Of a stretch of DNA of 5,613 nt, positions 1,062-4,568 are shown in pieces. Each line of letters starts with the position of its first letter. The stretch's first letter is position 1. The stretch is from positions 1 to 5,613 of IMG/VR virus record IMGVR_UViG_3300013902_000158, one strand, 5' to 3'. The stretch is from a virus. The notes under the pieces were generated by a model. That model worked only from the letters and a program-made list of their open reading frames with translations. It was not told the DNA's origin and did not search any database. The position numbers and the translations under genes are program-made.

Positions 1062-1237
1062 TGTTTTTCCTCCTTATTTATTGGATGTTCCACCTCTTGG
1101 TTGTAAGATTGGACGGTTTTTATAGCTGCCGCGATTAGCTGTAGCATTAAAAACACGGCTGTAATTAGTTGCTTTTTTTCCACGCATGATAATTTTCTCC
1201 TTTTATTTGTAAATTTCTTCTGTTTTGTGTTTTTCAT
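1052..1237 (-). CDS. 61-aa overprinted ORF: basic N-terminus, one predicted transmembrane helix, acidic tail; candidate small membrane or lysis protein
   Basis: Track ORF MKNTKQKKFTNKRRKLSCVEKKQLITAVFLMLQLIAAAIKTVQSYNQEVEHPINKEEKQCH. It covers the whole 37-aa gene in another frame and runs 10 nt into the 123-aa gene. The SD is weak (GGGA about 12 nt upstream). Its Leu/Val codons (CTA, GTG) are unlike those of the capsid gene. Confidence 0.3.
   Translation of the reverse strand: MKNTKQKKFTNKRRKLSCVEKKQLITAVFLMLQLIAAAIKTVQSYNQEVEHPINKEEKQCH
1074..1187 (-). CDS. 37-aa highly basic protein, J/VP8-like DNA-binding (packaging) protein; below the ORF-track length cutoff
   Basis: Hand translation gives MRGKKATNYSRVFNATANRGSYKNRPILQPRGGTSNK plus TAA. 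It has 9 Arg/Lys and no acidic residue. The SD reads AAAAGGAGAAAATTATC-ATG. Its stop TAA is fused to the GGAGG SD of the next gene (TAAGGAGG). Size and charge match phiX174 J (38 aa) and the small basic proteins of gokushoviruses. Confidence 0.65.
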   Translation of the reverse strand: MRGKKATNYSRVFNATANRGSYKNRPILQPRGGTSNK

Positions 1238-1275
1238 GGTTTTTAATTCCCAGTGTCAGGATGTTCAGTAAGCTT

Positions 1276-1533
1276 TCAGCGATGCTGAATACGCAAGTCC
1301 AACAGATTTTCATTTTTTATTCTCCTTTCTAATTCTTCATTGGTTTTGTCCAATTTCCATTTGTTAATTTCTTGTTTTCTTTTATTTGTATTCATGTCTA
1401 TGCTTAATTTTTCTGCCAGTTCCAGAATGGTTTCTCTTGGCAATCCCCGACACGAAAGTGCTAAGTCATAGACAGGAATTTTTGATTTGACGGCTTTGTT
1501 CAAAATCCACCAGATTTTTGATACGTCGTTCAT
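1276..1533 (-). CDS. 85-aa hypothetical protein; possible helix-turn-helix followed by a charged coiled coil
   Basis: The internal ATG at 1533 of the 112-aa track ORF is preceded by ACTAAGGAGACAAAA, an AAGGAG SD with a 7-nt spacer. The protein is MNDVSKIWWILNKAVKSKIPVYDLALSCRGLPRETILELAEKLSIDMNTNKRKQEINKWKLDKTNEELERRIKNENLLDLRIQHR. The segment VYDLALSCRGLPRETILELAEKL has a helix-turn-helix-like pattern, which is weak and not verified. Confidence 0.7.
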   Translation of the reverse strand: MNDVSKIWWILNKAVKSKIPVYDLALSCRGLPRETILELAEKLSIDMNTNKRKQEINKWKLDKTNEELERRIKNENLLDLRIQHR

Positions 1534-2185: not shown

Positions 2186-2214
2186 ATTATATCATAAGGC
2201 GCATAATGTATCAA
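2186..2214 (-). promoter_or_regulatory. Near-consensus sigma70 promoter with extended -10, reading into the 71-aa, VP5, J-like, VP1 and VP2 gene string
   Basis: The minus strand reads TTGATA (2214->2209), a 17-nt spacer, TGA (2194->2192) and TATAAT (2191->2186). That is 5/6 at -35, a perfect -10 and a TGn extension. Confidence 0.6.
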
Positions 2215-2264
2215 GGATTATGTTGAGTGCGTCAGCACTGAACATAATCGGCGTTATGCGCCTT
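2196..2264. promoter_or_regulatory. Two inverted dif-like XerC/XerD recombination sites forming a 69-nt imperfect palindrome (putative attP)
   Basis: Minus strand 2264->2237 reads AAGGCGCATAA-CGCCGA-TTATGTTCAGT, the canonical 11-6-11 layout. Plus strand 2196-2228 reads AAGGCGCATAA-TGTATC-AAGGA-TTATGTTGAGT. Both are compared with E. coli dif, GGTGCGCATAA-TGTATA-TTATGTTAAAT, quoted from memory. Stems: 2196-2206/2254-2264 (11 bp), 2216-2224/2241-2249 (9 bp), 2226-2230/2235-2239 (5 bp). Confidence 0.6.
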
Positions 2265-3447
2265 GTGAATCGCCTTTATTTCTGCGCAACAGCGCAAGTT
2301 TTTTTAATTTTGTTTCGTATGTTCTTGTTATATATTCTTCTTCACTTAAATCAGTTTTTTCTAATATTTTTTTCCAATTTATTTCTCCGATTTTGCATTT
2401 CCAATAGTCGTATTCTTCATATTCTTCTTCGTTTTCGCTTCGCCATTTTTTTTCCATCGCTTTTGGTAATTTTGCCAAAAATGTTTTTCCGCGGTTTTTC
2501 ATAATAATACCGCCGTTTTCTTTTATTTTGTCTTTGTTTTTTATCCAGTAAAAATACCCGATAAATCCCAGTGATGATGCACCGATGAATTCTAACTGTT
2601 TTTTTCTTTTCATTTTTTCTATTTCTTCATTGGTTCTGCTTGTTTTTTTTGTACAGTATCTTGCAACGTAAGCGGCTGTTTCAGTGGTTGCGTAACCGAT
2701 TATCACGAATCCTTTACCCCAGATTTTGTTGATTTTTTTTGATGTGTATAACCAATACCCTCGTCTGTCTTTGCTGTAACGTCTTAGGTCTGCTGGTTTG
2801 AAATTCCAAATAACTGCATGATAGTGCGGTCTTTTGGTTTTTGGTCCGTATTCTCCACAGTTCAGGTATCTGATTGGTTTTCGGTTCTTGCGTCGCGCGT
2901 TTTGTCCAAACAGGTCTTCAAGTTCGTTTGAATATATCTCTTCAAGGTTGTTGTTTTCGATTGTTAAATCTATTTCTGATGCTTTTTGTGTATGTTTGTA
3001 CAAATGATATCTTATTTTCTTCCAGAAGCTCTGAATATCAGCGCGGCGCAATTTACGGTCGTGTGGTAGATTGTAATTGTCGTATGTGAATGTGTAGAAT
3101 GTTGCGTTTTTCCACATCTGGTTTTCGCACCATGCTTTGGTTGCCCATTCTTTCGAATGTTCAGTTCTGCATATTTCGCATTTACCGCATCCAACTTGGT
3201 TAAAGTTGAAAAATCCCATGTTGTATAATCTGCGATGTGTCAGGAATTTACTATGTCTTGGATTTTTGTCGTAATATACCCACCATTTACCGGTGCACAT
3301 GTTTATGACGCCTTGTTCCAGAGAACCGTTTCCGAGTGCCAGCAGGTTTTGTTTGTTGAAAATTCGTTTTTTGCACAACCAATCGATGTTATCGAATATT
3401 GCTTGTTTGTTGATGGTGTAGATATAATGACGGTGTTTGCATTGCAT
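2254..3447 (-). CDS. VP4: Replication initiation protein VP4 (phiX174 A-like HUH rolling-circle endonuclease), 397 aa; alternative start at 3300 would give 348 aa
   Basis: Track ORF with the superfamily motifs: the Cys cluster GCGKCEICR, motif 1 ATFYTFTYDN, the HUH motif KRPHYHAVIWNF preceded by RYLNCGEYG, and the double-Tyr catalytic motif AAYVARYCTKK (Y-x-x-x-Y as in phiX174 A). The canonical N-terminus resembles MCTGKWW at 3300. However, the 49 upstream codons use AAC 6 times and AAT never, like the capsid gene (AAC 12, AAT 2 in its first 230 codons), which favours the 3447 start. Confidence 0.9.
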   Translation of the reverse strand: MQCKHRHYIYTINKQAIFDNIDWLCKKRIFNKQNLLALGNGSLEQGVINMCTGKWWVYYDKNPRHSKFLTHRRLYNMGFFNFNQVGCGKCEICRTEHSKEWATKAWCENQMWKNATFYTFTYDNYNLPHDRKLRRADIQSFWKKIRYHLYKHTQKASEIDLTIENNNLEEIYSNELEDLFGQNARRKNRKPIRYLNCGEYGPKTKRPHYHAVIWNFKPADLRRYSKDRRGYWLYTSKKINKIWGKGFVIIGYATTETAAYVARYCTKKTSRTNEEIEKMKRKKQLEFIGASSLGFIGYFYWIKNKDKIKENGGIIMKNRGKTFLAKLPKAMEKKWRSENEEEYEEYDYWKCKIGEINWKKILEKTDLSEEEYITRTYETKLKKLALLRRNKGDSQGA

Positions 3448-3484
3448 TTTGAACTTCTTTTGGCTTTTTCTTCGAATAAGAAAA

Positions 3485-3594
3485 AGTTGGGACGTCTGGC
3501 TCTTGATATATATAGTCCCAACTGACAGGATTCAGAGTGAATAAGGGTTTCAGTCCGAATCCTGCGATTGGTAAATCGGTTTGTGTTGACAAAC
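3485..3594. promoter_or_regulatory. Array of four consecutive hairpins in the large intergenic region; candidate complementary-strand origin
   Basis: Four stems are present. AGTTGGGAC/GTCCCAACT is 3485-3493/3515-3523 (9 bp). CAGGATTC/GAATCCTG is 3526-3533/3557-3564 (8 bp). CGATT/AATCG is 3565-3569/3574-3578 (5 bp, loop GGTA). GTTTG/CAAAC is 3579-3583/3590-3594 (5 bp). The last three abut without spacers. Confidence 0.5.
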
Positions 3595-3614
3595 TTGCTC
3601 TCCTATGTTATGCT
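3586..3614 (+). promoter_or_regulatory. Near-consensus sigma70 promoter on the strand opposite to all phage genes
   Basis: TTGACA (3586-3591), a 17-nt spacer, TGt (3606-3608) and TATGCT (3609-3614). That is a perfect -35, optimal spacing, an extended -10 and a -10 that keeps T1, A2 and T6. Confidence 0.5.
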
Positions 3615-3639
3615 TGTTCTATAACCATAGGATTTTGAT

Positions 3640-3756
3640 ATGAATATGAAGCACGGTCCTTTGTATTGGATTCTTACTGTTTTTTGCGGTGTTTGGTGTT
3701 TCTTACTCATTTTTGCTGTTGTCGGTTCTTTAATTACTGCGATTTTTTACATGTAA
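3640..3756 (+). CDS. 38-aa hydrophobic single-helix peptide encoded antisense to the rest of the genome; below the ORF-track cutoff
   Basis: Hand translation gives MNMKHGPLYWILTVFCGVWCFLLIFAVVGSLITAIFYM plus TAA. The SD AGGA (3629-3632) lies 7 nt before the ATG, and there is an in-frame stop at 3628-3630. The ORF lies about 19 nt downstream of the predicted start of the 3586-3614 promoter. It falls in non-coding DNA apart from the last 10 nt, which overlap the end of VP2. Caveat: the T-rich plus strand favours hydrophobic codons. Confidence 0.4.
   Translation: MNMKHGPLYWILTVFCGVWCFLLIFAVVGSLITAIFYM
3671..3722. repeat. Imperfect 23-nt direct repeat with 29-nt period
   Basis: TTCTTACTGTTTTTTGCGGTGTT (3671-3693) aligns with TTCTTACTCATTTTTGCTGTTGT (3700-3722). 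About 18 of 23 positions are identical, including the blocks TTCTTACT and TTTTTGC. Confidence 0.5.
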
Positions 3757-4568
3757 TTGTTGTAGTTGTGGTTTATTACAGGTGCTTTTTTTGTTGCGCC
3801 CGCTGCGAATGGTATGATATTTGCGACCTCGTTGAAGGTTAATCCCATTGCTTTCATTGCTTGTCCGAATCTTGTGCTATAAAAAGCGTTTTCGATTTCG
3901 GCTTGTTTTTCTCTGTTGAGGTTTTCCATTTTAATTGCCGTCAATTCTGATATCTGTTTCTTTTCTTCGATACTCAGTAGTTCGTATTGTTTTTTGACAT
4001 TTTGGATTTCAGCGTTTTTCTTTTCAGTTTCCGCTTGCAGGTTTTGAGTGTTCGCCTGAGTTTCCGTTGCTTGTGCTGATTTGACTGCTGTATCTGCTGC
4101 AATGTTGGAAATTTCGGCTTTTGATTTGCCGTCAATGTATTTGTTTTCAGAGAATGTTTTCGCCGCCGCCGCGATTGAATTGATGCTGCCGCTTACTGCT
4201 CCGATAGCGTTGCCAACTTTGCTCATGGTGTCTGCTCCTGATGGTTCAGGTGTCATTGTTGCTTGCGCCCCCGGGCCGGTTTGTGCGCCGGTTTGTGCCG
4301 CTGCCGCTGGATTTAGTCCTGCCAGTGCTAAATCTTCTTTTTCTCGTTGATGCGCTGTGTTTGCCATCATTTCTTGCCATTCACGGTTCTTTTGTGCTTC
4401 TTCCGCGTTGGCTTTGTTTGTTTCACGTGTTTGTGCTGCTCCTGTGAATTTGTCCCATGTGTTGCTTATTATGTTTTGACCGCGTTCAGTCAATGCTAGT
4501 GATGTGCCTGCTGTAAATGGTGCTGCTACGTAGCCGACTACATTTCCTAATTCTTTCCAAAAGCCCAT
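3747..4568 (-). CDS. VP2: DNA pilot (minor capsid) protein VP2 (phiX174 H analogue), 273 aa
   Basis: Track ORF with a strong SD (AAAAGGAGTTAAAAA-ATG). The block NREWQEMMANTAHQREKEDLALAGLNPAAA matches the conserved gokushovirus VP2 block as I recall it (SNTA-x-QR-x-x-x-D-x-x-x-AGLNP). It is followed by an Ala/Gly/Gln/Thr-rich linker and a long coiled coil. It lies immediately downstream of VP1. Confidence 0.88.
   Translation of the reverse strand: MGFWKELGNVVGYVAAPFTAGTSLALTERGQNIISNTWDKFTGAAQTRETNKANAEEAQKNREWQEMMANTAHQREKEDLALAGLNPAAAAQTGAQTGPGAQATMTPEPSGADTMSKVGNAIGAVSGSINSIAAAAKTFSENKYIDGKSKAEISNIAADTAVKSAQATETQANTQNLQAETEKKNAEIQNVKKQYELLSIEEKKQISELTAIKMENLNREKQAEIENAFYSTRFGQAMKAMGLTFNEVANIIPFAAGATKKAPVINHNYNNYM
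3749..3792 (+). terminator. Weak intrinsic-terminator-like hairpin plus T7 run just after the 38-aa ORF
   Basis: The TGTAAT/ATTACA stem is 3752-3757/3775-3780, extended by AC/GT (3749-3750/3782-3783) across one mismatch, with a 17-nt loop. It is followed by C and TTTTTTT (3786-3792). The stem is AT-rich and the T-run also encodes Lys-Lys of VP2 on the other strand, so it may be coincidental. Confidence 0.25.
4275..4298. repeat. Perfect 12-nt tandem duplication inside VP2
   Basis: GCCGGTTTGTGC occurs at 4275-4286 and again at 4287-4298. It is in frame and encodes AQTG-AQTG within the low-complexity linker AAAAQTGAQTGPGAQAT. Confidence 0.9.

Follow-up and report, generated by a model that had tools for sequence, protein, structure and literature searches.

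The window analysed here, i.e., the whole stretch of 5,613 nucleotides (nt) of the virus record IMGVR_UViG_3300013902_000158 (IMG/VR), represents the entire circular genome of a microvirus, a unit of 5536 nt with a terminal repeat of 77 nt, and every recognisable gene lies on its minus strand. Between the genes encoding the DNA pilot protein and Rep, the plus strand carries a promoter, a Shine-Dalgarno (SD) sequence and an open reading frame (ORF) of 38 codons, and this antisense cassette is the subject of the present analysis. A previous reading of the letters without database searches (hereafter, the sequence-only reading) had proposed a hidden plus-strand gene for a small single-helix membrane peptide, expressed from the replicative form or from a prophage. 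This proposal gained support from the retained start, the retained promoter and the synonymous-biased change observed among relatives, and based on these comparisons the segment 3586-3756 of the plus strand is very probably a real, expressed antisense peptide gene of a temperate microvirus. The cassette and its neighbourhood contain the following elements, in window coordinates:

3586 to 3591, plus strand: TTGACA, the -35 hexamer of the antisense promoter (P_anti), from the promoter scan
3606 to 3614, plus strand: extended -10 element TGtTATGCT (TG at 3606-3607, TATGCT at 3609-3614), separated from the -35 by a 17-nt spacer
3629 to 3632, plus strand: SD sequence AGGA, 7 nt before the ATG at 3640
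3640 to 3756, plus strand: 38-codon ORF for the predicted single-helix hydrophobic peptide MNMKHGPLYWILTVFCGVWCFLLIFAVVGSLITAIFYM, with the stop TAA at 3754-3756 and a 10-nt overlap with the end of the pilot gene (3747-3749)
3762 to 3792, plus strand: weak hairpin (3762-3785) and run of seven T (3786-3792) within the pilot coding sequence, a proposed terminator that is unsupported
3746 to 3448: pilot-Rep intergenic region of 299 nt, in which the antisense cassette sits on the plus strand
4568 to 3747, minus strand: DNA pilot protein gene, 273 residues
3447 to 2254, minus strand: Rep gene

The positions that had been assigned to the promoter (TTGACA-N17-TGtTATGCT, 3586-3614), the SD, the ATG and the stop of the 38-codon ORF were all correct. 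With both hexamers, a spacing in the 16-18 bp range and the optional TG, P_anti has the makeup of a sigma-70 promoter, its activity being predicted; it matches the consensus at 10 of 12 positions and is the second-best promoter match that the scan found in the genome, with transcription inferred to start at about position 3621. Matches of at least 9/12 occur 11 times genome-wide, against 10.7 expected from shuffles, i.e., there is no excess. An inverted repeat, CCTATGTTAT...ATAACCATAGG, located at 3601-3633, spans the -10 and the SD and is kept in same-species relatives; the RNA fold of 3575-3640 has a z-score of -3.1, and this repeat could be an operator or a single-strand structure. Shuffles of 3568-3786 that preserve its composition produce an ORF of at least 22 amino acids (aa) opened by ATG in 44% of the cases and such an ORF with an SD in 6%, which justifies the caveat of the sequence-only reading that hydrophobic ORFs arise easily on a T-rich strand. 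On the window sequence alone, the case for the ORF is weak and not significant.

When the exact peptide was looked up, the only matches were six contigs at least 99.9% identical to the window, in which gene callers had called the ORF; such near-copies are uninformative as a comparison. Relatives were collected from GenBank (15 records with Rep about 60-63% identical, corresponding to 14 distinct genomes, all of them rodent or lemur faecal microviruses, and two further ones with Rep 42-44% identical), by a scan with the conserved hairpin motif (integrated copies in two Candidatus Enterousia metagenome-assembled genome (MAG) contigs of 103 and 45 kb) and by a Rep protein search (70 relatives, many on contigs of 10-180 kb). 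The main comparison set comprised 27 non-redundant genomes or prophages with Rep 42-96% identical, to which four same-species relatives (Rep 94-96% identical) were added later; individual relatives are cited by their L numbers. The gene order capsid, pilot, intergenic region, Rep is common to all assembled relatives. Scans of IMG/VR with Rep, pilot and the conserved DNA motif detected zero relatives, as did a capsid scan of JGI metagenomes; a motif scan of metagenomes gave a single contig, L010, which is unrelated, and L012, from the genome scan, encodes no window protein.

Across the main set the ORF is found in 23 genomes versus 8.7 expected from composition-preserving shuffles, and the ORF together with an SD in 18 versus 0.7, which places the cassette far beyond chance. 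The same antisense layout occurs between pilot and Rep in 26 of the 27 genomes and in all four same-species relatives: a near-consensus sigma-70 promoter is followed by an SD or a leaderless ATG, a hydrophobic ORF of 19-38 codons and a stop located at or near the pilot stop. The sole main-set member without a cassette is L024, an 'unverified' partial record. A lack of the cassette in L007, where the intergenic region has just 157 nt, was considered and rejected, as the cassette is located inside the annotated pilot tail. The ORF stop lies within about 14 nt of the pilot stop in about half of the genomes and deeper inside the pilot gene in the others, and the two stops interlock in seven genomes. 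Twenty-nine distinct peptides were compiled, with a median length of 30 aa and a median uncharged stretch of 22 residues; 15 of them contain proline in the helix.

The antisense frame is the only one open in all genomes, the other frames carrying stops. A sense-strand ORF in the same region (3603-3710 of the window, minus strand, 35 aa) was also evaluated and discarded: comparable ORFs cover it in only 8 of 28 genomes, and stops interrupt the matching frame. Conservation in relatives had been proposed as the check for the hidden gene, and the relatives indeed keep the promoter hexamers and the ATG, together with an SD or, in its place, an exact leaderless spacing, while frameshifts or stops in an otherwise kept nucleotide sequence were found in none of the relatives. 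Altogether, a start codon with an SD or a leaderless geometry was observed in 26 of the 27 relatives; this, the retained frame and the synonymous excess in the pooled close pairs (below) are as would be expected of a translated small gene. Two variants of the layout are worth describing. L014 (OQ686883.1) has two successive antisense hydrophobic ORFs, MKGLSFLCY... (30 aa) and then MSDFIYVLIV... (32 aa), the second of which resembles the single leaderless ORF of L019. In the distant relative L042 (PQ007383.1, Rep 36% identical) the antisense slot between pilot (ends at 2544) and Rep (starts at 3052) has a 76-aa ORF that is preceded by an SD, opens with an N-terminus resembling a signal peptide/lipobox (..VLCSC..) and ends in a stop interlocking with that of the pilot gene; no homologues of this ORF were found beyond itself.

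Conservation of the promoter extends to its details. TTGACA or a one-mismatch variant is found at the homologous position in 25 of the 27 relatives, followed at the same spacing by TATAAT, TATGAT, TATACT or TGnCATAMT as the -10. Six genomes match the consensus at 12/12 positions (L011, L013, L014, L019, L022, and L023) and at least eight more at 11/12. In the same-species genomes three spacer positions vary with the hexamers and the TG invariant, and in L025 the TG is retained and the n base of the extended -10 is changed. Three types of leader occur. Most relatives show AAGGA, AAGGG or AAGAGG 6-8 nt upstream of the ATG; in five genomes (L005, L017, L019, L031, and L033) the distance from the -10 to the ATG is exactly 6 nt, as in leaderless mRNAs; the third type is longer and structured. 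The start codon of L022 is GTG instead of ATG.

The comparison of synonymous and non-synonymous change, also proposed beforehand, showed that most changes within close pairs are synonymous or conservative. Of the 117 nt of the ORF, four differ between the window and L025, three of them at synonymous third positions and one giving V18I, the genomes being 90% identical overall. The window shares the N-terminal MKHGPLYWIL with L032 (Rep 66% identical) through five synonymous codon changes, and L038 and L006 (Rep 64% identical) encode an identical 28-aa peptide with one synonymous and no non-synonymous change. The proportions of non-synonymous (pN) and synonymous (pS) differences have a ratio of 0.3-0.4 in the pairs L032/L030, L014/L018, and L005/L022. 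Pooling the five close pairs (Nei-Gojobori) gave a pS of 0.21, a pN of 0.059 and a ratio of 0.28; 21 of 44 changes were synonymous versus 20% expected (binomial p = 4.6e-5). Between L005 and L022 the ORF stands out as an island of 92% identity within flanks of 69-74%. As judged from these substitution patterns, the open frame is under purifying selection.

The peptides are also exchanged among phages, and the module involved includes part of the neighbouring gene:

3747 to 4006, minus strand: C-terminal third of the pilot gene, co-exchanged with the peptide ORF as a variable module in several relatives

Peptide type does not track the Rep tree: phages with Rep 94-99% identical bear unrelated peptides and an identical peptide is found in phages with Rep 64% identical. 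The breakpoints fall at the ATG or within the promoter. L017 and L018, for instance (Rep 99% identical), have identical DNA from Rep through the -35, diverge abruptly between the -35 and the -10, and encode unrelated peptides. The species of the window has at least four alleles (the window/L025 type, L035, L037, and L038) behind nearly the same promoter, leader and SD; the latter three carry other ORFs from the ATG onward, with leader and SD nearly base-for-base the same (one or two differences). Similarity between the window and L037 or L038 ends at about 4006-4015 (about pilot residue 187 of 273) and resumes exactly at the peptide ATG, and the C-terminal pilot segment of L038 and L006 is about 93% identical versus about 65-70% upstream. 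According to these alignments the exchanged unit is the C-terminal third of the pilot gene plus the peptide, and in L005/L022 the peptide alone. After recombination, the promoter, the start and a hydrophobic ORF were always restored. An antisense gene beside the replication gene is thus found swapped for unrelated alleles in near-identical phages. The C-terminal third of the pilot gene was also recorded as a recombination hot spot in its own right, same-species relatives being about 88-89% identical up to residue ~187 and unrelated from there to the ATG of the peptide; in L035 the whole pilot gene is a different one.

The -35 of P_anti lies in the outermost of a group of conserved hairpins located between the promoter and Rep:

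3579 to 3594, no strand assigned (fold): hairpin or palindrome with a 6-bp stem and a GTTG loop, containing the -35; outermost of five between P_anti and Rep
3455 to 3578, minus strand: four further conserved hairpins between P_anti and the Rep start, including GTTGGGAC-(TATATATATCAAGAG..)-GTCCCAAC; context, outside the antisense gene

The hairpin region has a DNA fold z-score of -6.6 and shows compensatory stem changes across relatives, which in the outermost stem are CTTTGT/ACAAAG, ATTTTT/AAAAAT, AAATGT/ACATTT, CCTTGT/ACAAGG, and CTATCT/AGATAG. The segment 3455-3578 is 72-88% conserved in the GenBank relatives matching it, and the TATATATATCAAGAG hairpin loop is nearly invariant. This five-hairpin region is probably a replication origin or nick site. 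Such a neighbourhood is what a fortuitous origin of the cassette would invoke, i.e., that the ORF is a chance product of a T-rich spacer (shuffles of the window region yield one in almost half of the cases, as described above) and that the promoter-like sequence belongs to the origin, whether for M13/F Frpo-like priming or as a protein-binding palindrome. The excess of ORF plus SD across genomes, the purifying selection and the recombination breakpoints at the ATG speak against it, as does the position of the hexamers. For a single-strand promoter such as M13 ori(-) or F Frpo, a long, imperfectly paired duplex hairpin on the packaged strand would hold both hexamers; in P_anti the 4-nt loop of a 6-bp hairpin takes up half of the -35, and the -10 lies in a separate hairpin, the latter folded in the window only. 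A chance origin is therefore regarded as very improbable. The suggestion of the sequence-only reading that the same promoter might serve primer synthesis also appears unlikely, as P_anti is of the linear, duplex sigma-70 type and its placement is tied to that of the ORF start.

Some observations weigh against the interpretation of the cassette as a peptide gene. The plus strand, with 40.5% T over the window, reaches 47-55% T at this locus, so that hydrophobic ORFs arise easily. The -35 and the spacer lie within a conserved hairpin, and part of the promoter conservation may therefore serve replication. Divergent peptide families have a pN/pS of about 0.8 and are saturated or unalignable, so the selection signal rests on the five close pairs and their 44 substitutions, and because the compared genomes share ancestry the counts across them are not independent. 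Finally, family and homologue searches yield no functional handle: searches for peptide homologues (tblastn versus phages, and searches of 5.8 billion proteins and 1.8 billion representatives) detected only the peptide's own cluster and one chance match in a repetitive protein of 2895 aa; hits in Pfam, PHROGs and PADLOC were limited to sub-threshold transmembrane noise, and Rfam had nothing relevant.

Downstream of the ORF, the sequence-only reading had placed a hairpin followed by a T7 run as the end of the transcription unit. The T7 run is indeed located at 3786-3792 of the plus strand, where it is the antisense of pilot Lys-Lys codons, but the terminator itself did not stand. An intrinsic terminator would consist of a stable GC-rich hairpin followed by a U-run and be conserved; the hairpin at 3762-3785 is weak (-6.5 kcal/mol, z = -0.73), is not listed by a terminator scan of the genome and has no equivalent in most relatives, even the 90%-identical one failing the hairpin criterion. 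Without a convincing terminator, the transcript probably continues antisense into the pilot gene. This raises the alternative that the product is an antisense RNA, or the act of transcription itself, which would oppose read-through of the late operon into Rep or target pilot/capsid mRNA, so that replication and virion genes stay low in lysogens, the ORF being secondary. In agreement with such a role, conservation is much higher in the promoter than in the peptide, and the scan finds no sense Rep promoter in 3448-3600, so that Rep may depend on a read-through that P_anti would oppose. On the other hand, an RNA product leaves unexplained the retained ATG and SD, the exact leaderless spacing and the open frame, as well as the synonymous bias and the conservation islands restricted to the ORF. 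This alternative, which is compatible with a functional peptide, is considered improbable as the main explanation.

The convergence of the two transcripts is likewise the basis for an addiction module resembling type I toxin-antitoxin systems, in which a depolarising peptide would be countered by the complementary 3' end of the late sense transcript, stabilising the prophage or episome. The sequence-only reading had suggested a similar antisense control of the peptide mRNA by sense read-through. The peptide's size, hydrophobicity and own promoter fit such toxins, the convergent overlap with the pilot transcript guarantees complementarity, and the long structured leaders of some relatives could gate translation. 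Nevertheless, Rfam shows nothing, the scan shows no minus-strand promoter inside the ORF, or a short way downstream of it, that could give a dedicated antisense RNA (for mRNA pairing, only late-operon read-through is available), no similarity to known toxin families was found in Pfam or PADLOC, and the leaderless and short-leader variants lack the translational locks typical of these mRNAs. The probability given to an addiction function is low.

The association of this clade with bacterial chromosomes bears on when the cassette may be expressed. Prophages, those of the window's own species included, adjoin mscL and aroK on contigs of Candidatus Enterousia MAGs and on related MAG contigs, and the cassette is intact in the integrated relatives (L026, L011, L013, L028, L030, and L032-L038). 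In the one prophage checked for repeats, L026, 27-nt dif-like direct repeats TAYACATAATATACATTATACGCCTTT are located at 3616-3642 and 9327-9353, 5711 nt apart. The prophage state anticipated by the sequence-only reading is thus borne out by integrated copies of the same species and its relatives, with dif-like repeats flanking L026. The clade appears to be temperate through XerCD/dif integration, as inferred from these contigs, and the host is assigned to Candidatus Enterousia, an alphaproteobacterium. As the promoter is a promoter only in duplex DNA, expression would be possible only from the replicative form or an integrated prophage, and the prophage state supplies a duplex template on which the gene of the antisense promoter can be the main active gene. 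The remaining features of the window are as follows:

2188 to 2268, minus strand: pair of dif-like sites in inverted orientation, directly following the Rep stop: GGCGCATAA-CGCCGA-TTATGTT with its imperfect partner
692, wrapping round the origin of numbering to 4613, minus strand: major capsid gene
minus strand: small ORFs, including an ORF5-family protein and a scaffold-like protein

In single-stranded DNA the dif-like pair folds into a forked hairpin (-21.2 kcal/mol, z = -6.8). The strongest sense-strand promoter, TTGATA-N17-TGnTATAAT (2214 to 2186), overlaps these sites. When cassette presence was compared with dif sites, the strict dif motif missed several genomes. Two contigs, L032 (1-8200) and L025 (1-9460), hold two different microvirus genomes in tandem, with two capsid and two Rep genes each, which fits repeated XerCD integration at one dif site; for L025 a chimeric assembly is possible.

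A model for the function of the cassette can be outlined on this basis. Host sigma-70 RNA polymerase would start at P_anti, which points away from Rep, on the far side of the origin hairpins, and towards the oncoming late operon, and would produce a short mRNA on which the SD AGGA would drive translation of the 38-residue peptide. The product, essentially one transmembrane helix, would insert in the inner membrane, and the peptide made by lysogens and carrier cells would block the pilot-mediated DNA entry of related phages. A superinfection-exclusion or immunity-like envelope factor is tentatively the favoured role, at less than even confidence. In favour of it, a near-consensus and seemingly constitutive promoter that resides in a prophage points to expression in the lysogen. 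Near-identical phages exchange their alleles in the manner of immunity regions, the ORF shows linkage to the C-terminal domain of the pilot protein, and a 76-aa signal/lipobox-like protein occupies the same slot in a distant relative. It was reported that gokushovirus carriage confers superinfection immunity (PMC7062461). An own promoter, intactness in the prophage and an envelope-targeted product, the marks of a moron, also appear to be combined in these cassettes, which are intact in prophages and encode a predicted hydrophobic helix. Exclusion meets its own difficulties. The near-universal presence of the cassette looks more like an essential function; no lysis gene or other conserved small membrane ORF was found on the sense strand, and L005 and L022 share the peptide and not the pilot C-terminus, hence matching to the pilot is not strict.

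The main rival is that the peptide is the missing lysis protein, similar to phiX174 E or to the small single-gene lysis (Sgl) proteins of single-stranded RNA phages, which would be made from the replicative form and kill once accumulated. Neither the window nor 14 relatives contain a lysin, a peptidase or a conserved sense-strand small membrane ORF, and the near-universality of the cassette in the clade is expected of an essential function. Sgl proteins are extremely diverse in sequence, and the peptides are Sgl-like in size, with one transmembrane helix, often with proline. Conversely, a near-consensus, apparently unregulated promoter would be lethal to lysogens, where these phages are common; convergence with late transcription means that expression falls rather than rises late in infection; and unrelated alleles in 99%-identical phages resemble specificity or immunity modules more than housekeeping lysis. 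A holin would need a partner endolysin in the genome, and no lysin, peptidase or amidase was found among the window proteins; neither was homology of the peptide to phiX174 E. Lysis is rated as rather unlikely. A weak alternative lysis candidate was noticed on the sense strand, a 36-aa ORF with a partly hydrophobic N-terminus (MKICWTCVFSIAESLLNILTLGIKNHEKHKTEEIYK, 1203-1313, minus strand), for which no comparable hydrophobic sense ORF was found above threshold in relatives.

Returning to superinfection exclusion, a more specific version can be proposed in which the pilot-Rep slot is a heteroimmunity-type cassette, where an inner-membrane peptide that is type-specific and matches the C-terminal domain of the pilot protein would enable a lysogen or carrier cell to keep out phages of the same pilot type. 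In this elaborated form the proposal is speculative and somewhat doubtful. If true, frequency-dependent selection would drive the allele swapping, and this would be the first functional complementary-strand gene in Microviridae as well as a mechanism for the immunity of gokushovirus carriers. To our knowledge, no mechanism for that immunity has been identified.

Microviruses are the textbook case of genomes transcribed from one strand. The largest curation of Microviridae discarded reverse-oriented calls on principle (PMC9239249), the ORF is annotated in none of the GenBank relatives examined, and a search of the literature for microviruses with antisense, ambisense or opposite-strand genes found none describing such a gene in Microviridae. 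Small phage membrane peptides with their own promoter are already known; the novelty lies in finding one, conserved and recombining, on the complementary strand of a microvirus. The cassette would imply that, for at least one temperate clade of the gut, the one-strand assumption conceals real biology, and the peptide is a concrete candidate for superinfection immunity in carriage or lysogeny, or for host lysis.

Several known systems share traits with this cassette. The type I toxins Hok, Ldr, TisB, Ibs, and Fst are hydrophobic peptides of 19-60 aa with their own promoter and a complementary overlapping transcript; unlike them, no antitoxin small RNA and no family match were found here, and several variants are leaderless or have unstructured short leaders. 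The lysis proteins phiX174 E and Sgl (e.g., the 37-aa LysM) are tiny, fast-evolving and built on one transmembrane helix, in phages without a muralytic enzyme. They differ in being encoded on the coding strand, usually overprinted and with no promoter of their own, whereas this gene is antisense, has a near-consensus promoter and is prophage-resident.

Among exclusion proteins, T4 Imm, P22 SieA, TP-J34 Ltp, and T5 Llp are small and envelope-located, and proteins of this kind have their own lysogen-active promoter, are highly variable and moron-like, and act on DNA entry. Ltp of TP-J34 targets the tape-measure protein of the incoming phage, a functional analogue of the pilot protein. The small protein DicB (PMC6832061) may be placed beside them. 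No sequence similarity connects the peptides with these proteins, most of which are much larger.

The nearest analogue is rstR in the ig-2/rstR region of CTXphi. RstR is a DNA-binding repressor of about 110 aa in a phage of a different family and virion type, and a classical repressor is not what this cassette encodes, its products being transmembrane peptides of 19-38 aa, nearly all hydrophobic helix, with no match to a DNA-binding family. The parallels concern organisation and life cycle. CTXphi is a single-stranded DNA phage that integrates at dif through the host XerCD, and the forked dif-like hairpin of the window resembles its folded attP. As in this microvirus clade, rstR is the sole gene opposite to all others, lies beside the replication gene and occurs as unrelated alleles among near-identical phages with conserved flanks.

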